This document shows, one piece after another, positions 1-14,050 of a stretch of DNA of 46,713 bases. Below the pieces are notes generated by a model. It was given only the letters and a program-made list of their open reading frames with translations. It did no database searches and had not been told where the DNA came from. A program made the position numbers and the translations under genes. Source of the stretch: a virus (taxonomy: Duplodnaviria > Heunggongvirae > Uroviricota > Caudoviricetes); IMG/VR virus record IMGVR_UViG_2563366972_000004, one strand, 5' to 3'. Positions within the stretch are counted from its first letter, which is position 1. Every line of letters starts with the position of its first letter.

Positions 1-1164
1 TTACGCCTTCTTTATATCCTCCATAATTCCAGAGTGGGACATATTTGGGACATTATCACCAAAAATGTCGTCTATTTTCCTCGCATGCTCTGTCAAATGA
101 TTAGGCGCAAGGTGAGCATACCTACGAACCATTTCTGTGGACTCCCATCCGCCCATTTCCTGAAGCACTGATAATGGGACGCCTGACTGAATCAGCCAGC
201 TTGCCCAGGTGTGTCTGAGGTCATGGAAACGGAAATCTTCAATTCCTGCACGACGACAAGCTGATAGCCATGATGTCTTGCTGTCGATGCGCATCTTCCT
301 GACCGCAGGCGTTGATGTTCCATCTGCTCGCTTAGCCGCCTTGGTATGTACAAACACCCATTTGTGATGCTTGCCTATTTGATCACGCAACACTTTACAG
401 GCGGTATCGTTCAGCGCCACACCAATGGCGCGGTTTGATTTGCTCTCTTCTGGATTCACCCAGGCAACTCGTCGCTGCATGTCGATTTGTTGCCATTCCA
501 GATTTATGATGTTCGACTTTCTCAGACCAGTTGCCAGCGCAAACTTGACGACAGATTTCAGTGGTTCGGGGCACTCATCAATAAGGCGTTTTGCTTCCTC
601 CTTTTCCAGCCATCTGACTCGCTTGTTTCTGACCGCTGGTATCTTGATGACAGGCGCTTTTTCCAGCCACTTCCAGTCGCGTTCTGCAGCACGGAGAATG
701 GCCTTTATCATGGCAAGATGCTTTGCCTTTGTCTGAGTTGATACTGGCTTTGGTTCATAAACAGGCGGTTCTTTACCTTTCCTGATGGCGGCCTGAACTT
801 TCTGTTTCCATATTTCTTTCGTCTTTCTGTTATGCATTCTGCTTACAGCAGAGTAAATCTTTGCCTCCGAGATATCTTTAAGCCTTATACCCTCAAAATG
901 TTCAAGCCAGAACTCAATCCGGCTTTTATCTGAATCGAGAGATTTTTTATCAGCTTTTTCCTCAAGCCATCTTAGGCAGGCCTCTTCAAAAGTGACATCA
1001 GGTAAATCCCCTAGCTTTTCTACTCGCCAGAGTTCTGCTTTTCGCTTGTCGTGCAACTCCTGAGCTTGCCGCTTGTCCTTTGTGCCAAGAGATTCCTTAA
1101 TTCGTTTCCCGCCCGGGAGCGAATACGAGGCATACCATATTTCATTTCTGCGGAAGAGTGACAT
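1..1164 (-). CDS. int: Tyrosine integrase, P22-type (387 aa)
   Basis: Full ORF; N-terminus [18 protein letters not shown] and C-terminal HDLRHT...RYAH catalytic region match recalled P22-type integrases. Stop codon at 1-3. Confidence 0.9.
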
Positions 1165-7093: not shown

Positions 7094-7639
7094 ATGACTA
7101 TGCAACCACTTACATACCAACAGACTAGCGGATTTAGCCCGACTGCGGTGATAAATCGTTCTCAAACAAAACAGGCGCCAGGCCACGAAAAAATCCGTGA
7201 TGCCGTTCGCGCCTGGTCGGCTGCAGATAATCAGGATGTTGTTGCCGCACTCATTGTGAATGAGTATCGGGAGCAGGGCGGCGGCACCATCGATTTCCCT
7301 GATGATGTCAGCCGTGCACGCCAGAAGCTGTTCCGCTTCCTCGATAACAAATTCGATTCTGAAAAATACCGAAATAACGTGCGTGAACTGACCCCGGCAA
7401 TTCTGGCGGTACTACCGCTGGAATATCGCGGCCACCTGGTTGAGCAGGATAGCTTCATGGCTCGGCTGGCTGAAATGGAAAAGGAACTCAGTGAGGCAAA
7501 ACAGGCTGTCATTCTCAACGCACCACGCCACCAGAAACTGAAGGAAATTAGTGAAGGTATTGTGTCGATGTTTCGTGTGGACCCAGATCTGGCTGGTCCA
7601 TTGATGGCGATGGTTACTACCATGCTGGGGGCGATATGA
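7094..7639 (+). CDS. CII-position regulator, YdaT-like (181 aa)
   Basis: Position right after cro; segment ...EYREQGGG...PAILAVLPLEYR... resembles recalled Rac YdaT-type proteins (from memory, unverified). Confidence 0.5.
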   Translation: MTMQPLTYQQTSGFSPTAVINRSQTKQAPGHEKIRDAVRAWSAADNQDVVAALIVNEYREQGGGTIDFPDDVSRARQKLFRFLDNKFDSEKYRNNVRELTPAILAVLPLEYRGHLVEQDSFMARLAEMEKELSEAKQAVILNAPRHQKLKEISEGIVSMFRVDPDLAGPLMAMVTTMLGAI

Positions 7640-7725
7640 CAGGTTCAGAAATGGCGAAAGCCGGTCTGCTGGAACAGAACCGACTTTCAGGTGCAAATCG
7701 TAACACACTCATTGCGGGAGGAATT

Positions 7726-8655
7726 ATGGCAAACACTGCTGAGATATTCAATTTTCCAGTGCCGGATGCGGCACAAAAGGAGCCGCGCGTGGCAGATCTC
7801 GATGATGGTTATACGCGCATTGCAAATGAGTTGCTGGAAGCTGTGATGCTGGCCGGATTAACACAGCACCAGCTTCTGGTCTTCCTAGCTGTCATGCGCA
7901 AAACATATGGCTTTAATAAAAAACTGGATTGGGTGAGCAACGAGCAACTGTCCGAATTGACCGGGATATTGCCGCACAAGTGTTCTGCTGCAAAAAGTGT
8001 TCTGGTAAAGCGTGGGATTTTGATTCAGAGCGGGCGGAATATCGGTATTAATAATGTGGTCAGTGAATGGTCAACATTACCCGAATCAGGTAAGAAAAAT
8101 AAAGTTTACCTGAAAGAGGTAAATTTACCTGAATCAGGTAAGAAAAGTTTACCCAAATCAGGTAAAGGCGTTTACCCGAATCAGGTAAACACAAAAGACA
8201 AACTAACAAAAGACAATATAAAACCTTTTTCGTCCGAGAATTCTGGCGAATCCTCTGACCAACTAGAAAACGATCTTCCTGTGGTGAAACCAGATGCTGC
8301 AATTCAGAGCGGCAGCAAGTGGGGGACAGCAGAAGACCTGACCGCCGCAGAGTGGATGTTTGACATGGTGAAGACCATCGCGCCATCAGCCAGAAAACCG
8401 AATTTTGCAGGGTGGGCTAACGATATCCGCCTGATGCGTGAACGTGACGGACGTAACCACCGCGACATGTGTGTGCTGTTCCGCTGGGCATGCCAGGACA
8501 ACTTCTGGTCCGGTAACGTGCTAAGTCCGGCCAAACTCCGCGACAAGTGGACCCAACTCGAAATCAACCGTAACAAGCAACAGGCAGGCGTGACAGCTAG
8601 CAAACCAAAACTCGACCTGACAAACACAGACTGGATTTACGGGGTGGATCTATGA
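7726..8655 (+). CDS. O: Replication initiator O (309 aa from ATG at 7726)
   Basis: C-terminal half (SGSKWGTAEDLTAAEWMFDMVKTIAPSARKPNFAGWANDIRLMRERDG...) matches recalled lambda O; N-terminal DNA-binding half differs. GGGAGG 6 nt before the ATG at 7726. Confidence 0.85.
   Translation: MANTAEIFNFPVPDAAQKEPRVADLDDGYTRIANELLEAVMLAGLTQHQLLVFLAVMRKTYGFNKKLDWVSNEQLSELTGILPHKCSAAKSVLVKRGILIQSGRNIGINNVVSEWSTLPESGKKNKVYLKEVNLPESGKKSLPKSGKGVYPNQVNTKDKLTKDNIKPFSSENSGESSDQLENDLPVVKPDAAIQSGSKWGTAEDLTAAEWMFDMVKTIAPSARKPNFAGWANDIRLMRERDGRNHRDMCVLFRWACQDNFWSGNVLSPAKLRDKWTQLEINRNKQQAGVTASKPKLDLTNTDWIYGVDL
8087..8189. repeat. Replication origin iterons inside O, followed by AT-rich tract
   Basis: Five tandem about 18-bp repeats of TTACC(C/T)(G/A)AA..AGGTAA(G/A), then an A-rich stretch (acacaaaagacaaactaacaaaagacaatataaaacc). 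Confidence 0.75.
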
Positions 8656-9353
8656 AAAACATCGCCGCACAGATGATTAACTTTGACCGTGAGCAGATGC
8701 GTCGGATCGCCAACAACATGCCGGAACAGTACGACGAAAAGCCTCAGGTACAGCAGGTAGCGCAGATCATCAATGGTGTGTTCAGCCAGTTACTGGCAAC
8801 TTTCCCGGCGAGCCTGGCTAACCGTGACCAGAATGAACTGAACGAAATCCGCCGCCAGTGGGTTCTGGCTTTCCGGGAAAACGGGATCACCACAATGGAA
8901 CAGGTTAACGCTGGAATGCGCGTAGCCCGTCGGCAGAATCGACCATTTCTGCCATCACCCGGGCAGTTTGTTGCATGGTGCCGGGAAGAAGCATCCGTTA
9001 TCGCCGGACTGCCAAACGTCAGCGAGCTGGTTGATATGGTTTACGAGTATTGCCGGAAGCGAGGCCTGTATCCGGATGCGGAGTCTTATCCGTGGAAATC
9101 AAACGCGCACTACTGGCTGGTTACCAACCTGTATCAGAACATGCGGGCCAATGCGCTTACTGATGCGGAATTACGCCGTAAGGCCGCAGATGAGCTTGTC
9201 CATATGACTGCGAGAATTAACCGTGGTGAGGCGATCCCTGAACCAGTAAAACAACTTCCTGTTATGGGCGGTAGACCTCTAAATCGTGCACAGGCTCTGG
9301 CGAAGATCGCAGAAATTAAAGCTAAGTTCGGACTGAAAGGAGCAAGTGTATGA
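8652..9353 (+). CDS. P: Replication protein P (DnaB loader), 233 aa
   Basis: MKNIAAQMINFDREQMRRIANNMPEQYDEKPQVQQVAQII... matches recalled lambda P nearly throughout. Confidence 0.95.
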   Translation: MKNIAAQMINFDREQMRRIANNMPEQYDEKPQVQQVAQIINGVFSQLLATFPASLANRDQNELNEIRRQWVLAFRENGITTMEQVNAGMRVARRQNRPFLPSPGQFVAWCREEASVIAGLPNVSELVDMVYEYCRKRGLYPDAESYPWKSNAHYWLVTNLYQNMRANALTDAELRRKAADELVHMTARINRGEAIPEPVKQLPVMGGRPLNRAQALAKIAEIKAKFGLKGASV

Positions 9354-9652
9354 CGGGCAAAGAGGCAATTATTCATTACCTGGGGACGCATAAGAGCTTC
9401 TGTGCACAGGACGTTGCCGCGGTAACAGGCGCAACCGTAACCAGCATAAATCAGGCTGCGGCTAAAATGGCGCGGGCAGGAATCCTGGTCGTTGATGGTA
9501 AGGTCTGGCGAACGGTGTATTACCGGTTCGCTACCAGAGAAGAACGGGAAGGAAAGGTGAGCACGAATCTGATTTTTAAGGAGTGTCGCCAGAGTGCCGC
9601 GATGAAACGCGTATTGAGGGTATATAAAAGAACATCAATGGGTACACAATGA
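9350..9652 (+). CDS. ren: Ren (100 aa)
   Basis: Position after P and recalled similarity to lambda Ren. Confidence 0.8.
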   Translation: MTGKEAIIHYLGTHKSFCAQDVAAVTGATVTSINQAAAKMARAGILVVDGKVWRTVYYRFATREEREGKVSTNLIFKECRQSAAMKRVLRVYKRTSMGTQ

Positions 9653-9719
9653 TGAAACAGGTGAGTTGATTTCAAACTGTAGTACAATTCTCTCCAGTTT
9701 GAACAGGAAAGAATATGCT

Positions 9720-10052
9720 ATGAACCCTTATATTTATCTTGGTGGTGCAATACTTGCAGAGGTCATTGGTACAACCTTAATGAAGTTTTCAGAAGGTTTT
9801 ACACGGTTATGGCCATCTGTTGGTACAATTATTTGTTATTGTGCATCATTCTGGTTATTAGCTCAGACGCTGGCTTATATTCCTACAGGGATTGCTTATG
9901 CTATCTGGTCAGGAGTCGGTATTGTCCTGATTAGCTTACTGTCATGGGGATTTTTCGGCCAACGGCTGGACCTGCCAGCCATTATAGGCATGATGTTGAT
10001 TTGTGCCGGTGTGTTGGTTATTAATTTATTGTCACGAAGCACACCACATTAA
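9720..10052 (+). CDS. emrE: SMR-family multidrug efflux transporter EmrE (110 aa)
   Basis: MNPYIYLGGAILAEVIGTTLMKFSEGFTRLWPSVGTI... matches recalled E. coli EmrE (a DLP12 prophage gene in K-12); four hydrophobic helices. Confidence 0.9.
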   Translation: MNPYIYLGGAILAEVIGTTLMKFSEGFTRLWPSVGTIICYCASFWLLAQTLAYIPTGIAYAIWSGVGIVLISLLSWGFFGQRLDLPAIIGMMLICAGVLVINLLSRSTPH

Positions 10053-10083
10053 AAATAATTTGTTTCTAAACGACTAAAATATG

Positions 10084-10125
10084 GAGGCTCTTATATTTAT
10101 ATGAGCCTCGTTTTATGCTTTTTGT
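10084..10125 (+). terminator. Intrinsic terminator after emrE
   Basis: GGAGGCTC-loop-GAGCCTC hairpin followed by GTTTTATGCTTTTTG. Confidence 0.55.
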
Positions 10126-10308
10126 TAATGTCTTTATTTTTTTATGTATTCTTTTGTGCTTTCAAGATTATGGCGTAAGAAAATTGCAATACGATTATTG
10201 TTGTATATTCAAGATAATGTGACCTTAATTGTCTTTTTAAATAAAAATTAAACAAAAATTATATCTCACCACTAAGGTTTATAAAAGCATACGTTAGCAG
10301 GTGTCACC

Positions 10309-11835
10309 ATGAAAAAAGCCATAGCATATATGCGATTTTCATCACCAGGTCAGATGTCTGGCGACTCATTAAACCGACAGAGAAGACTTATTGCTGAATG
10401 GTTAAAGGTAAATAGTGATTATTATCTTGATACCATAACATATGAAGATTTAGGATTAAGTGCATTCAAAGGAAAGCATGCACAATCAGGAGCTTTTTCG
10501 GAATTTTTAGATGCTATAGAGCATGGTTATATATTGCCAGGAACTACATTGTTAGTTGAAAGTCTGGACAGACTTTCAAGAGAAAAAGTCGGTGAAGCGA
10601 TTGAGCGTCTGAAATTGATTTTGAATCACGGTATTGATGTTATAACTCTTTGCGATAATACAGTCTATAATATTGACTCTTTGAATGATCCATATTCATT
10701 AATAAAAGCCATACTTATAGCACAAAGGGCAAATGAAGAAAGCGAGATAAAGTCAAGTCGGGTTAAATTATCATGGAAGAAAAAACGGCAGGATGCACTG
10801 GAGTCAGGCACGATTATGACGGCGTCTTGTCCGAGATGGCTCTCCTTAGATGACAAAAGAACGGCTTTTGTTCCAGACCCCGACAGGGTGAAAACTATTG
10901 AGCTAATTTTTAAACTCAGGATGGAAAGGCGCTCATTGAATGCAATAGCCAAGTATTTAAATGATCATGCTGTAAAGAATTTCTCAGGAAAAGAAAGTGC
11001 ATGGGGACCTTCTGTAATTGAAAAATTATTAGCGAATAAAGCTCTGATAGGTATATGCGTACCTTCATATCGTGCAAGAGGTAAAGGAATAAGTGAAATC
11101 GCTGGCTATTATCCCAGAGTCATATCAGATGATTTGTTTTACGCTGTGCAGGAAATTCGGTTGGCACCTTTTGGTATTAGCAATAGTAGCAAAAACCCTA
11201 TGTTGATAAATCTACTTCGAACAGTTATGAAGTGCGAGGCTTGTGGTAATACCATGATTGTTCATGCGGTATCTGGAAGTTTGCATGGCTATTATGTTTG
11301 TCCGATGAGAAGACTGCATCGATGTGACAGGCCATCAATAAAGAGAGATTTGGTTGATTATAATATCATTAATGAGTTGCTTTTTAATTGTAGTAAAATC
11401 CAACCAGTTGAAAACAAGAAAGATGCTAATGAAACTTTAGAGTTGAAAATTATTGAGCTCCAGATGAAAATTAATAATTTAATTGCTGCATTATCTGTTG
11501 CGCCTGAAGTTACCGCTATAGCAGAAAAAATCAGAGTATTAGATAAGGAATTACGAAGGGCTTCTGTATCATTAAAAACTTTGAAGAGTAAAGCGGTGAG
11601 CTCACTTGGTGATTTTCATGCTATTGACTTAACCAGTAAAAATGGGCGAGAGCTATGTCGTACACTTGCCTATAAAACATTCGAAAAAATCATAATCAAT
11701 ACAGATAATAAAACCTGTGATATCTATTTTATGAATGGCATTGTTTTTAAACACTATCCTTTAATGAAAACAATATCCGCCCAGCAGGCGATAAGTACTC
11801 TCAAATATATGGTTGATGGTGAGGTTTATTTTTGA
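10309..11835 (+). CDS. ybcK: Large serine recombinase (YbcK-like), 508 aa
   Basis: N-terminal resolvase-type catalytic motif (AYMRFSSPGQ), zinc-ribbon cysteines (CEACGNT...CPMRRLHRC), coiled-coil tail; matches recalled K-12 DLP12 YbcK. Confidence 0.85.
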   Translation: MKKAIAYMRFSSPGQMSGDSLNRQRRLIAEWLKVNSDYYLDTITYEDLGLSAFKGKHAQSGAFSEFLDAIEHGYILPGTTLLVESLDRLSREKVGEAIERLKLILNHGIDVITLCDNTVYNIDSLNDPYSLIKAILIAQRANEESEIKSSRVKLSWKKKRQDALESGTIMTASCPRWLSLDDKRTAFVPDPDRVKTIELIFKLRMERRSLNAIAKYLNDHAVKNFSGKESAWGPSVIEKLLANKALIGICVPSYRARGKGISEIAGYYPRVISDDLFYAVQEIRLAPFGISNSSKNPMLINLLRTVMKCEACGNTMIVHAVSGSLHGYYVCPMRRLHRCDRPSIKRDLVDYNIINELLFNCSKIQPVENKKDANETLELKIIELQMKINNLIAALSVAPEVTAIAEKIRVLDKELRRASVSLKTLKSKAVSSLGDFHAIDLTSKNGRELCRTLAYKTFEKIIINTDNKTCDIYFMNGIVFKHYPLMKTISAQQAISTLKYMVDGEVYF

Positions 11836-11946
11836 GTAATAATCACTTTTTCAACCGTGCTATAGTAAGAAAGTTAGGTAAGTACAATAAAATTATCTAT
11901 CCTGAACGAAGCGTCCTGAGCTATGGTTTTACTATAGGGACTGCCA

Positions 11947-12264
11947 ATGGATGCTGGCGTTCTCGTTCTAGCAGTTCAACAATCCCCAATCACAAAACAA
12001 TTCACTGATAACGAACTTTGCACACTCGCCTGGTTATGGCGAGCAGGGAATGTGATGTTAATTGCCTACCAGAACGTTACTCATCTTCTTCAGGATGCGG
12101 AGCATGGTGAAGCTGGTCACTTCACTTCCATCGAGCAAGAATATCCCCAGATACTCAACAGAGCGCGAGCAATCCTCGTCCGAGAAACGGCACATGTAAA
12201 ACTTCAGCCGTGGCAGGATGATAAGTGGAGTCGAGTATTGCCGTATTTGCGTCAAATCTGTTAG
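11947..12264 (+). CDS. Hypothetical protein (105 aa)
   Basis: ORF in track with AGGGA upstream; not recognised; could be a gene remnant. Confidence 0.3.
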   Translation: MDAGVLVLAVQQSPITKQFTDNELCTLAWLWRAGNVMLIAYQNVTHLLQDAEHGEAGHFTSIEQEYPQILNRARAILVRETAHVKLQPWQDDKWSRVLPYLRQIC

Positions 12265-12361
12265 GAGTATAGCCGCCAGCCATGAGTGTTGTATTAAAAC
12301 AAGGATGTCTATATATGGGATAGCGAGAGTATGAATATCAGTTATTTTGAGAGTTAACTGA

Positions 12362-12405
12362 TTGTGAAATTAGTTTTTTTCACAAACGAGTGGGGTTACT
12401 ATGAT
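12362..12405 (+). promoter_or_regulatory. Candidate sigma70 promoter with overlapping inverted-repeat operator for the 309-aa gene
   Basis: Inverted repeat TTGTGAAA-7nt-TTTCACAA (12362-12385); -35-like TTCACA (12379-12384) and -10-like TATGAT (12400-12405), 15-nt spacer. Confidence 0.4.
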
Positions 12406-12468
12406 GAGTGTTCTAATGCATAGGGAACACCTAATTTTTTCAATGAATTCAAATTGATAGGATCAAAA

Positions 12469-13398
12469 ATGGCACAACAGAGAACTACCTCCCTCAGATC
12501 CATACCTTTAGACTTAGATGTTAAGCAAGAGGCTGTCATTAACGGTATAGAAATGGGGGTACTCGATAACGGAATTCCGTACCTTACTCAGAATGGGTTG
12601 GCAAATGTTTGTGGTGTTCAGCGTTTGCGAATCAAGGAAATTACCGATGAGTGGGCTCAATCCGTTGAGAACGGTATTTTCAAAAAAGGAAGAATGACTT
12701 TTATTGGTACATATCTTCTTAATGAAGGTTTTACAGATGAAAAACTTTATATACCAATAATTCGAAATGGTGTTGAGTACCATGCTTATCCAGATGTTGT
12801 ATGCATGGCTATACTTGAATACTATGCCTTTGAAGCAAAACAAGCAGAAAGTGAGACTGCAATTAGATCTTACAGAGAGCTTGCTAAAAAAGGCCTCAAG
12901 ACATTTATATACGAGGCGCTAAAATATCAACCGGAGGACCCGTGGAGGCATTACCATGACAGAGTATCTTTATTAAAAGATAAGGGAACCATACCTGATG
13001 GGTATTTCATTATATTTAATGAAATTGCAGGTATGATGGTAGATCTCATCAATGCTGGATTAGCGATTAATCAGCATACCGTACCTGATGGCAGTGTTGG
13101 TTCTTGCTGGGCGCGTCACTGGAAAGCAAAGGGGTTAGCAACAGAATTTGGAGAAAGAGTAGACTGTGAGCATTATTACCCTGAAGATTTTCTTCAGGCA
13201 AGTTCCAATCCTCAGATCATTAATGCCTATCCTGATTCTGCATTGTCAGAGTTTCGTAGATGGTTTAAGCATGAATATTTAACCACAAAGTTCCCACCGT
13301 ATATTCTTAAAAAATCAAACGTGCTTCCTGGTGGTACAGAAGATGCTAATCGTCTGATAGAAGCTTTCAAAAAATCAGAGCTAGAAAATAAACCATAA
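12469..13398 (+). CDS. Unrecognised prophage accessory protein (309 aa from ATG at 12469)
   Basis: ORF in track; ATG at 12469 with AGGA 8 nt upstream; AT-rich; not recognised. Contains YPD-x12-EAK, a possible PD-(D/E)xK-like nuclease motif (tentative). Confidence 0.6.
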   Translation: MAQQRTTSLRSIPLDLDVKQEAVINGIEMGVLDNGIPYLTQNGLANVCGVQRLRIKEITDEWAQSVENGIFKKGRMTFIGTYLLNEGFTDEKLYIPIIRNGVEYHAYPDVVCMAILEYYAFEAKQAESETAIRSYRELAKKGLKTFIYEALKYQPEDPWRHYHDRVSLLKDKGTIPDGYFIIFNEIAGMMVDLINAGLAINQHTVPDGSVGSCWARHWKAKGLATEFGERVDCEHYYPEDFLQASSNPQIINAYPDSALSEFRRWFKHEYLTTKFPPYILKKSNVLPGGTEDANRLIEAFKKSELENKP

Positions 13399-13594
13399 TT
13401 GTTTTTTGGCTTTTGATTTTACATAATCATTTTGCCATAATCATGTCATCGGAGCCTGAACAACTCCGGTGACTTCTGCGCTAAACGGGGACGTTTATGC
13501 GCACATACAATCCAAACTCTCTTCTCCCTTCACAGATGCAGAGATGCACCTGCGATTTTTTGCATCCAGCGTTTGACCTCTGCGGAGGTGAAGC

Positions 13595-14050
13595 GTGAAT
13601 CTCCCACAAGATGGCATCAAATTACATCGCGGTAACTTCACCGCTATCGGTCGGCAGATCCAGCCTTATCTGGAGGAGGGCAAATGCTTTCGCATGGTGC
13701 TTAAACCGTGGCGTGAGAAACGCAGTCTTTCCCAGAATGCACTCAGCCACATGTGGTACAGCGAAATCAGTGAATACCTCATCAACAGGGGTAAAACGTT
13801 CGCCACTCCAGCTTGGGTAAAAGATGCTCTCAAACACACATATCTCGGTTATGAAACCAAAGACCTGGTTGATGTCGTAACCGGTGATATCACCACTATC
13901 CAGTCGTTACGCCATACCTCCGATCTTGATACCGGAGAGATGTATGTCTTCCTGTGTAAGGTTGAAGCCTGGGCGGTGAATATTGGCTGCCACCTGACTA
14001 TTCCGCAGAGCTGCGAGTTCCAGCTGCTCCGTGACAAGCAGGAGGCGTAA
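13595..14050 (+). CDS. ybcN: YbcN-like nin-region protein (151 aa, GTG start)
   Basis: Matches recalled K-12 DLP12 YbcN; GGAGG 7 nt before the GTG. Confidence 0.8.

Follow-up and report, generated by a model that had tools for sequence, protein, structure and literature searches.

The DNA analysed here (46,713 nucleotides; hereafter the window, meaning the whole stretch) is a DLP12-type, lambda-like lambdoid prophage of E. coli. The prophage looks complete, and not defective as is DLP12 of E. coli K-12; its own tyrosine integrase is encoded at 1-1164 on the minus strand. A 3.1-kb query was matched at 100% by E. coli 13P460A, whose prophage adjoins tRNA-Arg (the 13P460A locus coordinate minus 10701 gives the window coordinate). 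The emrE-ylcJ-ybcK block is already annotated accessory cargo, known from K-12, and the K-12 DLP12 genes show 97-98% nucleotide identity to it. The first-pass annotation had described 9653-11946 as an AT-rich block in a phage that already has a tyrosine integrase, and had suggested that it is a nested mobile module or a recombinase-controlled switch bounded by short inverted repeats. The description was borne out, in that the block is AT-rich foreign cargo within such a phage and all of the elements listed were found where they had been placed. The features of the region are:

9350..9652, plus strand: ren, an ORF annotated as 'protein ren' in the 100%-identical stretch of 13P460A; last gene of the replication module
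9626..9643, no strand: left mosaic junction of the cargo slot, from blastn junction mapping and alignment
9671..9703, no strand: dyad TTCAAACTG-n15-CAGTTTGAA in the 5' region of emrE, spanning a TACAAT -10-like hexamer
9720..10052, plus strand: emrE, SMR efflux pump of 110 aa (Pfam Multi_Drug_Res, 2.1e-35; NCBIfam SMR_efflux_EmrE, 1.9e-72, above cut-off)
10084..10115, plus strand: intrinsic terminator of emrE (12-bp stem, short loop, T-run)
10101..10251, plus strand: ylcJ, a small ORF annotated as 'ylcJ, frameshifted' in the identical 13P460A stretch
10116..10308, plus strand: AT-rich leader of ybcK, containing its sigma-70 promoter
10309..11835, plus strand: ybcK, large serine recombinase of 508 aa (Pfam Resolvase, 5.3e-19; Recombinase, 2.3e-14; Zn_ribbon_recom, 8.2e-08)
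11836..11937, no strand: ybcK-linked 3' flank, including both arms of a 9-bp inverted repeat
11860-11868 and 11929-11937, no strand: the 9-bp pair CTATAGTAA / TTACTATAG, both arms confirmed
11938..12264, plus strand: 3' remnant of a rha/antirepressor gene (105-aa ORF at 11947-12264; Pfam P22_AR_C, 7.7e-14)
12454..13398, plus strand: bstA, 309 aa, abortive-infection defence (PADLOC BstA, 3.6e-121, 287 of 292 profile positions)
13411..13441, plus strand: right edge of the slot; the conserved backbone begins again here, with the promoter-like sequence TTGATT-17-CATAAT before ybcN

Similarity to the phage backbone (cargo-less SfI, PA28 and PhiR5_1) stops at 9625, inside ren, the final ~27 bp of which (from 9626) already belong to the variable slot; similarity to the emrE cassette of the chromosomal fliE locus starts at 9643. 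On the right, homology to all of the related phages, whatever their cargo, restarts at 13394-13413, shortly before ybcN, the first nin-type gene, at 13595. No common sequence was found among the variants compared to the left of the right joint (~13411). As judged from these alignments, the true variable slot is larger than the flagged block: it spans ~9626-13410 and also contains the rha/antirepressor remnant and the BstA abortive-infection defence gene. The end of the block at 11946 was not upheld, since the rha remnant and bstA lie between ybcK and ybcN. Nor did comparison with related prophages place the boundaries at the repeats, as had been anticipated; phages with recombinase-free cargo have the same edges, at ~9626 and ~13411.

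The GC content is 0.28-0.40 in the block against ~0.50 in the flanks. Occupancy of the slot differs among SfI, PA28, PhiR5_1, PEC240, Perceval, K-12 and EDL933. SfI has ren joined directly to ninA/ninB, and PA28, PhiR5_1 and PEC240 carry unrelated, recombinase-free cargo between the same two anchors. Where ybcK is present, its right-hand neighbours are of five kinds: ybcL-ybcM, rha'-bstA, an alpha/beta hydrolase gene, a microhomology deletion or backbone. The slot is a general hotspot, an accessory 'moron' slot of DLP12-type lambdoid phages, and the block has the deviant composition, the promoter and terminator of its own and the variable presence between conserved modules that characterize such cargo. 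A permissive Rfam scan of 9300-13600 gave two chance-level matches only, with no riboswitch upstream of emrE.

The dyad at 9671-9703 can be lengthened to arms of 12 nt (one mismatch) around a 9-nt loop, and its position is 30-45 bp within the emrE cassette. In 81 of 83 scorable related loci it is invariant, and it accompanies emrE even at the chromosomal fliE locus, where ybcK is absent and where one arm carries an uncompensated change. Neither a second copy of the dyad nor one of its half-site was found in the 46.7-kb window. The dyad is not the minimum-free-energy RNA fold (z = -1.3); considered by itself, it has a chance probability of ~0.016 for the 67-bp spacer, a post hoc figure. It is probably an expression signal or operator of emrE; it is not a module boundary. 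The terminator hairpin (10084-10109) folds at -13.8 kcal/mol (z = -3.1), and in the phage Perceval the changes in the stem, read by eye, keep pairing only via G-U wobble, which indicates that the hairpin acts at the RNA level. In Perceval, the 3' end and 3'UTR of emrE, with a terminator, are also present a second time, in diverged form. A 38-45-bp direct repeat that flanks ybcK in Perceval, seen in that phage type only among the loci then compared, was considered as a pair of att sites and is better explained as a relic of this second copy.

The spacer between emrE and ybcK (10053-10308) has a GC content of ~0.28. The ylcJ ORF within it is frameshifted in the present lineage and intact in KKa019. 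The hexamers of the ybcK promoter, as read from the sequence (GTGACC at 10219-10224, 17 nt, TAAAAA at 10242-10247), match those of a promoter listed in the emrE>ybcK spacer by genomic SELEX, with an H-NS flag (PMC3946193). The leader is reported to be silenced in K-12 by H-NS, Hfq-polyphosphate and Rho: the ybcK 5'UTR contains a Rho-dependent terminator and ybcK is silent in the lysogen (PMC4150792), and Hfq/polyP binds the ybcK leader (PMC10954037). The motif TCAAGATWAT has three copies in the window, all of them near the start of ybcK, and was dropped when 73% of shuffles with the local AT-rich composition gave an equally large 10-mer family. The K-12 DLP12 genes emrE (b0543), ylcJ and ybcK (b0544) have the same order, the same position after ren and the same silenced AT-rich leader; the present locus differs from K-12 by the ylcJ frameshift and by having the rha remnant and bstA after ybcK instead of ybcL-ybcM.

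By its sequence and its predicted structure, YbcK has all the parts of a large serine recombinase, and purifying selection on it is strong. In 22 homologues with 29-62% identity, R9, S11, Q15, D87, R88 and R91 of the N-terminal catalytic domain and the zinc-ribbon cysteines (C309, C312, C331 and C339) are invariant. In the AlphaFold model (mean pLDDT 80.9, pTM 0.42), in which the domain folds are reliable and their relative placement is not, the coiled-coil is a helical hairpin (H368-395 and H401-429); a clade-specific beta-rich domain follows the zinc ribbon and coiled-coil at the C-terminus. A plain sequence search of the PDB with YbcK returned nothing at E <= 1e-3. Searching the PDB with Foldseek returned 9dxd_A (1.3e-18), PhiC31 9tep_A (1.7e-14), Bxb1 9iu2_A (6e-14) and 4kis_C (1.1e-10). 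YbcK shares the three-domain architecture, the catalytic residues and the zinc ribbon with its coiled-coil hairpin with the PhiC31, Bxb1 and LI (A118) integrases and with that of PDB entries 9dxd and 9dxh (full-length matches to cryo-EM structures, E values of 1e-18 to 1e-10), but is only 14-19% identical to serine integrases; its gene is not located at an end of the prophage, and the phage has the tyrosine enzyme as its integrase. The domains, the invariant residues and the fold match agree with the earlier call of a 508-aa large serine recombinase.

Full-length ybcK was found in 71 of 72 viral-contig copies, and the catalytic residues are kept in all 71 full-length E. coli phage copies, as they are in each of the 28 protein alleles. 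The dN/dS ratio of ybcK is 0.06-0.09 at a dS of 0.12-0.18; for the adjacent emrE, in the same genome pairs, dS is 0.01-0.05. Given this greater divergence of the ybcK alleles, the two genes have separate histories despite their constant linkage. Deletion or overexpression of ybcK in E. coli B and K-12 has been associated with sabinene tolerance (PMC7181518) and with rifampin-induced persistence (PMC5845583). No published YbcK recombination assay turned up in the ybcK literature screened, and the PADLOC defence models gave no match for YbcK, the rha remnant or EmrE.

The 3' flank of ybcK is common to all types, decaying, to ~11874, to the W, Perceval and EDL933 types to 11901, and to W and Perceval to ~11937. 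The 9-bp pair within it has only 60 bp of non-coding DNA between its arms; among the 86 related loci it is perfect in 44, matches at 6-8 of 9 positions without compensating changes in 15, and is missing or incomplete in 27, the K-12 and EDL933 (O157) types included. The downstream pair is, on these counts, lineage-specific and not conserved. Folding of the flank as RNA was no better than that of shuffles (z = +0.56); considered by itself, the pair has a chance probability of ~0.027 for its 111-bp spacer, again a post hoc figure. The region 9653-11946 contains four 9-mer inverted-repeat hits (gap 3-100 bp), two of them overlapping registers of one palindrome in ybcK; dinucleotide shuffles of the region gave 1.65 +/- 1.71 such hits, and 14% of the shuffles reached four. 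The right arm of the pair ends, at ~11937, at a joint with the truncated rha gene, which aligns from ~11938 with the 3' ends of the full-length genes of PhiR5_1 and PEC240. The rha remnant became attached to the ybcK flank through illegitimate recombination. The suggestion that the two repeats delimit a module or switch was not sustained, the upstream dyad being unpartnered and internal to the emrE cassette and the downstream pair not conserved. We infer that neither repeat is a recombination site for the block.

We found ybcK in 1426 of 5426 complete E. coli genomes, with ren, emrE and ybcK contiguous in at least 1356. In the viral contigs emrE or ren lay upstream of ybcK in 80 of 80, barring interruption by an IS element or a contig end, and in every prophage copy examined ybcK directly followed emrE in a single orientation. 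All of the 86 related loci are colinear, and the region alignments are single pieces apart from IS insertions; the diverged K-12-type flank also aligns colinearly and not inverted. No excised, transposed or inverted allele was found in the 1426 E. coli genomes and 80 viral contigs, a survey in which finished genomes would miss rare excision circles. The inversion or excision expected by the first-pass annotation was therefore not seen in this set.

An arrangement of emrE followed by ybcL without the 2083-bp ybcK block occurs in 2628 genomes, in the fliE lineage only, at 87-93% identity and with small indels at the emrE-ybcL joint. A chimeric query representing a recent emrE-ybcL excision product had no match at >= 95%; what matched were old fliE-lineage alleles and one gene-converted copy (93.5%). 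The ends of the 2083-bp block (10061 and the K-12-type right joint) have no terminal inverted repeats, target duplication or dyad. Short repeats at these ends were set aside as chance-level, for example a 13-nt direct repeat with 12 of 13 matches, one among many similar. The sole strong palindrome (10084-10109) is set back ~35 bp from the edge of the block, and its behaviour is that of an RNA terminator. A second chimeric query, joining emrE to the ybcN backbone, matched in 2 genomes only; the one inspected (wlxctx60), a candidate empty site, proved to be a degraded prophage with a random internal deletion in ybcK. The EDL933 deletion uses a 3-bp microhomology. Independent insertions with identical junctions were not found: ybcK has one context, after emrE in the ren-ybcN slot, and its right joints differ. 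No recognisable att pair around ybcK and no directionality factor were identified, and ybcK is not at the prophage end. The att sites of large serine recombinases have only a few bases in common, and inspecting a sequence does not suffice to find them.

The relatives of YbcK tell more about its origin. Full-length relatives, 39% identical, form the left end of AbiTii-carrying islands in hofB (a T2SSE ATPase gene), with one precise junction in four genera (Serratia, Leclercia, Mixta and Rahnella). The recombinases of these islands are 91-96% identical, whereas the blastn-aligned flanking host genes are 63-78% identical. The same precise junction in four genera is the mark of site-specific integration, and these relatives are bona fide integrases of small defence islands. 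In this respect the idea of a mobile module stands, as it applies to the relatives, and these integrases point to a mobile ancestry of YbcK. The hofB islets belong to the same clade and have the recombinase first, a short leader and variable cargo that includes abortive-infection genes; ybcK differs from them in that its neighbour is always the same, its flanks are eroded and it shows no independent insertion. In a lambdoid nin region, a closer relative (60% identity) heads a block that has a diverged, 229-bp duplication of the 5' end of the target gene at its flanks. The left boundaries of the closer relatives lie at different distances (-68, -120 and ~-149). An unrelated Pantoea lambdoid prophage, also with a tyrosine integrase, has a YbcK relative at the same position between replication genes and Q. 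In other Enterobacterales (Yersinia, Erwinia and, next to ssrA, Atlantibacter), YbcK-like genes lie directly after tail-fibre chaperone genes, with no inverted alternative fibre genes beside them.

We consider it fairly probable that the block, with an orphan integrase in it, is silenced cargo carried passively in a mosaic slot, and that the repeats are not sites. The slot would here be made up of four AT-rich pieces, each acquired separately: emrE together with the dyad before it and the intrinsic terminator behind it; ylcJ'-ybcK and its silenced promoter; what is left of the 3' part of the rha antirepressor gene, now dead; and bstA. Related phages exchange such pieces, and the joints fall on gene or terminator edges or inside truncated genes; joints of this kind are the mark of homologous recombination in conserved flanks and illegitimate joining, not of site-specific recombination. 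The ybcK gene may have come from an island as the gene of an integrase, now orphaned, and be a passive passenger of the slot. In the lysogen, ybcK would be held off by the emrE terminator, the Rho-dependent terminator and silencing by H-NS and Hfq-polyP. YbcK would then be made mainly when antiterminated early-right transcription, or a loss of silencing, reads into the gene, and, once made, could perform conservative recombination at some target. emrE, in turn, may serve as a lysogenic-conversion efflux gene. The block resembles lambdoid morons and defence cargo, such as the BstA prophage-defence family (PMC8585504), in that these are AT-rich, self-contained cassettes of variable presence between conserved modules; a recombinase is unusual among morons, as it is hard to see what host or phage would gain from it. 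The catalytic and DNA-binding residues are under strong purifying selection, which means that the enzyme is used for something, and passive carriage leaves this unexplained. The hofB layout of recombinase first and variable cargo next is also seen downstream of ybcK, an observation that counts against passive carriage, as do the separate histories of ybcK and emrE.

A rather unlikely alternative, in our view, is that YbcK is a trans-acting phage function whose sites lie beyond the block: on the host chromosome, in another part of the phage genome, or in phages or satellites that compete with it. Possibly, YbcK would act in lytic growth alongside the recombination genes ybcN/ninB and rusA. The low dN/dS, with no local sites found, would fit such a role, as would the location of ybcK in the delayed-early rightward operon adjoining ybcN and rusA, its silence in the lysogen (PMC4150792) and the equivalent position of the relative in the Pantoea prophage. 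The reported phenotypes (PMC7181518; PMC5845583) could also be read in this way, but they are indirect, and polar effects or stress might account for them. Against a role in trans, no candidate target was identified, and PADLOC placed YbcK in no known defence family.

We think it improbable that YbcK leads a nested islet, inserted by YbcK at a specific site immediately after emrE and still open to excision by it. In favour of an islet, ybcK encodes an intact enzyme that is under selection, and the 2083-bp difference between emrE-ybcK-ybcL (DLP12 type) and emrE-ybcL (fliE locus) is a discrete presence or absence. Its cargo could include the variable genes that follow ybcK (ybcL-ybcM, bstA or the hydrolase gene), and both the 39%-identical hofB relatives at the head of their AbiTii islands and the 60%-identical relative with its target duplication provide precedents. 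However, ybcK has a single insertion context in ~1500 genomes and contigs, there is no empty site at >= 95% identity, the cargo variants have no common right-end sequence, and illegitimate joints have eroded the right flank. Moreover, the second emrE 3' end and 3'UTR of Perceval suggests that the 10060/10061 boundary is the joint of the fliE lineage and not the end of an element, and the left boundaries of the closer relatives vary, unlike a fixed att arm. A shade more doubtful still is the stronger claim, that YbcK, as an active integrase, gave rise to a mini cargo islet nested in lambdoid phages, with the recombinase first and then exchangeable genes such as bstA, and is still able to move it. 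Such an islet would be a phage-borne counterpart of the hofB AbiTii islets, with att sites too short and too degenerate to be seen by eye.

An invertible switch, in which YbcK would flip a repeat-bounded segment and thereby alter expression of emrE or of downstream genes, is hardly credible and already close to refuted: YbcK has the serine-recombinase catalytic domain of Gin, Hin and Pin, two 9-bp inverted repeats are truly present nearby, and its relatives next to tail-fibre chaperone genes occupy the usual position of an invertase, but the dyad that forms the upstream repeat has no partner site anywhere in the window, the downstream pair spans non-coding DNA, is imperfect or absent in about half of the loci and has one arm abutting an illegitimate joint, the 86 colinear loci hold no invertible segment or inverted allele, and inverted alternative fibre genes are missing beside the relatives that adjoin tail-fibre chaperone genes. 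Gin, Hin and Pin, moreover, are invertases of ~190 aa with a C-terminal helix-turn-helix, acting at conserved 26-bp sites that flank a coding segment, whereas YbcK is a 508-aa enzyme of the integrase type.

The block as found matters little in itself, having long been annotated in K-12 DLP12 and having the architecture of an ordinary lambdoid mosaic cargo slot. What it does bring out is an intact large serine recombinase, under strong purifying selection, in about a quarter of complete E. coli genomes. YbcK is thus a cheap and well-defined candidate for a binding-site or recombination screen, and the compact hofB island integrases of its clade may be of interest as genome-engineering tools and for studies of how defence genes move.

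The window opens with a tyrosine integrase gene, followed by a lambda-like early region and then by O, P and ren. The interval 9300-12400 is 100% identical to an E. coli 13P460A prophage lying beside tRNA-Arg and adjoining the intD integrase, and 97-98% identical to the DLP12 prophage of K-12. All the elements listed in the first-pass annotation were found where it had placed them, and the emrE-ylcJ-ybcK block is a locus already annotated; the observation is thus confirmed, not new. In the lineage of the window, ylcJ is frameshifted. The relevant features are:

1-1164, minus strand: tyrosine integrase gene, at the window start
9720-10052: emrE
10084-10109: strong terminator hairpin with a T-run, from a fold computation
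between emrE and ybcK: spacer with a GC content of about 0.28
10309-11835: ybcK, an ORF of 508 aa with Resolvase, Recombinase and Zn_ribbon_recom domains
11947-12264: 3' remnant of a rha/antirepressor gene, a 105-aa ORF with the C-terminal part only (P22AR_C)
12454-13398: bstA, a BstA abortive-infection gene (PADLOC, 3.6e-121)

We compared the region with related phages. Similarity to their backbone ends at 9625, within the last codons of ren; it is not regained until 13411, where a promoter-like TTGATT-17-CATAAT precedes ybcN. In SfI, ren directly abuts ninA/ninB, and in PA28, PhiR5_1 and PEC240 the same interval is occupied by unrelated genes, with no recombinase among them. The position 3' of ybcK is taken by ybcL-ybcM in the K-12 type, by an alpha/beta hydrolase gene in the Perceval type and by almost nothing in O157 EDL933, the arrangement of the latter being the product of a deletion at a 3-bp microhomology. 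Homology of the rha remnant with full-length genes begins around 11938, and directly left of the 13411 joint the cargo variants have no sequence in common. These limits, together with the varied cargo, argue against the proposed island of two genes with its end at 11946. The stretch is instead a hotspot for cargo in general, made up of several sub-modules and spanning about 9626-13410. Here bstA is part of the ren-ybcN slot; in BTP1, the founding example, it adjoins the repressor instead. In PEC240 the slot carries a P22AR_C gene of full length together with a HEPN-domain gene and, beside it, a small ORF; on either side of this recombinase-free cargo is one copy of a duplicated 123-bp piece of the backbone upstream of ybcN (L004, 5805-5927 and 8127-8249). 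A serine recombinase is therefore not needed for such duplications in the hotspot.

The two inverted repeats had been suggested to bound a mobile module or a recombinase-controlled switch. The 9-bp pair (11860-11868 and 11929-11937) is perfect in 44 of 86 related loci; in 15 others, 6-8 of the 9 positions match, with the changes confined to one arm, and in the remaining 27, including the K-12 and EDL933 types, the pair is missing or incomplete. Its right arm ends at the joint of the ybcK-linked flank with the truncated rha gene, it folds as RNA no better than shuffled sequences, and four 9-mer inverted-repeat hits were observed in 9653-11946 against 1.65 ± 1.71 expected. Judged from these comparisons, the pair is a lineage-specific coincidence. 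The dyad at 9671-9703, which has a chance probability of about 0.016 for so short a spacer, sits 30-45 bp within the emrE cassette and spans a TACAAT hexamer; it is not the preferred fold as RNA, and no further copy occurs in the window. A second emrE locus, located beside fliE and devoid of ybcK, also has the dyad, one arm carrying a single uncompensated change. We read the dyad as part of the expression signals of emrE itself.

We found ybcK in 1426 of 5426 complete E. coli genomes, in one or two copies each, with ren-emrE-ybcK contiguous in at least 1356 of the 1426. In 80 IMG/VR contigs, emrE lies upstream of every ybcK copy except at IS1/IS3 insertions and contig ends. All alignments in both sets were colinear, with no inverted arrangement. 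The fliE locus, emrE-ybcL-ybcM, does not have the 2083-bp block holding ylcJ-ybcK; this arrangement is present in 2628 of the 5426 genomes, only in a lineage 87-93% identical, and no emrE-ybcL allele free of the block was found at 95% identity or above. No terminal repeats, duplication or dyad were detected at the ends of the block. In strain HH45, gene conversion between the two loci has turned the fliE copy into the DLP12 type on both sides of the gap, and the block was not transferred. A search for emrE in direct contact with the ybcN backbone gave two genomes; the one inspected as a candidate empty site was a decayed prophage in which ybcK carries an internal deletion.

Behind ybcK, Perceval-type phages retain the diverged relic of an emrE 3' end with its 3'UTR and terminator, suggesting that the terminator is part of the emrE unit and the 10060/10061 boundary a joint of the fliE lineage. 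In Perceval itself (L014, 4748-4782 and 6821-6855), this second copy lies about 280 bp downstream of ybcK, is followed by a different terminator hairpin, and stands just before the alpha/beta hydrolase gene, which is on the opposite strand. Behind the near-core fliE emrE-ybcL-ybcM (L002, 6001-8154, in E. coli WP4-S17-ESBL-03; also L103) is a stretch resembling the phage backbone upstream of ybcN (77% identity), so that the locus resembles what is left of an old lambdoid prophage. Overall, the pattern points to homologous exchange in conserved flanks plus illegitimate joints, and nothing in it to site-specific events. The repeat-bounded module or switch fails on three counts: conservation, boundaries and population polymorphism.

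The recombinase itself is well preserved. Alignment of YbcK with 21 homologues (29-62% identity) shows no change at the catalytic R9, S11, Q15, D87, R88 and R91 or at any of the four zinc-ribbon cysteines. An AlphaFold model (pLDDT 80.9) shows a catalytic domain, a long E-helix, a recombinase domain, a zinc ribbon and a coiled-coil hairpin, and in Foldseek searches it matched full-length serine integrases (E 1e-18 to 1e-10). The gene is full length with its catalytic residues in 71 of 72 scored phage copies, which represent 28 protein alleles, and E. coli alleles compared with one another give a dN/dS of 0.06-0.09 at a dS of 0.12-0.18. In sequence terms, ybcK is clearly maintained. In the same genome pairs the dS of the adjacent emrE is only 0.01-0.05, and the two linked genes thus have different coalescence histories. 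According to published work, the leader contains a Rho-dependent terminator (PMC4150792) and an H-NS-flagged sigma-70 promoter, GTGACC-17-TAAAAA (PMC3946193), at 10219-10247 in the window, and binds Hfq-polyphosphate (PMC10954037). The phenotypes of ybcK in published work are indirect only. A trans-acting role of YbcK in lytic growth seems rather unlikely.

YbcK-like proteins of 40-61% identity are found in other Enterobacterales, on plasmids, in islands and at prophage accessory positions, the latter either at prophage ends, 3' of tail-fibre chaperone genes, or between the replication genes and Q; a Pantoea prophage has a relative at the second position and also a tyrosine integrase. Related copies in different contexts share little DNA beyond the gene and 60-220 bp upstream. 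In a 39%-identical sub-clade, the gene and a 58-bp leader are 91-96% identical across Serratia, Leclercia, Mixta and Rahnella, and interrupt the T2SSE ATPase gene (hofB) at exactly the same nucleotide in all four genera; the flanking host genes, among those aligned by blastn, are 63-78% identical. Behind the recombinase are two AbiTii genes and a small resolvase (about 5940-10900 in L034, L035, L036 and L037, viewed over 6 kb, the right ends of the islets lying further out). By this shared junction the proteins of the sub-clade are true site-specific island integrases, which is decisive for YbcK ancestry. No fixed junction was seen among closer relatives of YbcK. That the block is a nested islet still active is improbable.

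Two other relatives deserve mention. In L011, a 60%-identical relative lies in a lambdoid nin region and forms a block with a KGG-domain gene and a DinI gene. Direct repeats of 229 bp, 82.5% identical to each other, bound this block (7623-7851 and 10609-10831); they represent the 5' portion of a DUF1367 gene, whose downstream copy is complete and whose upstream copy is truncated. In Citrobacter koseri (L017, 8145-11530), a 50%-identical relative is divergent from the neighbouring gene for a 555-aa protein, which matches Shufflon_N faintly. MobA/MobL and TraD genes are in the same region, and a recombinase-plus-pilus-tip arrangement may be hinted at here.

The best-supported account, which we consider somewhat probable, is that of a passive cargo slot, although it does not account for the retention there of a serine integrase that is intact and under strong constraint. 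The slot would hold emrE as an efflux moron, ybcK as an orphan integrase that came from an island and is silenced, a defunct piece of an antirepressor gene, and bstA as a defence gene.
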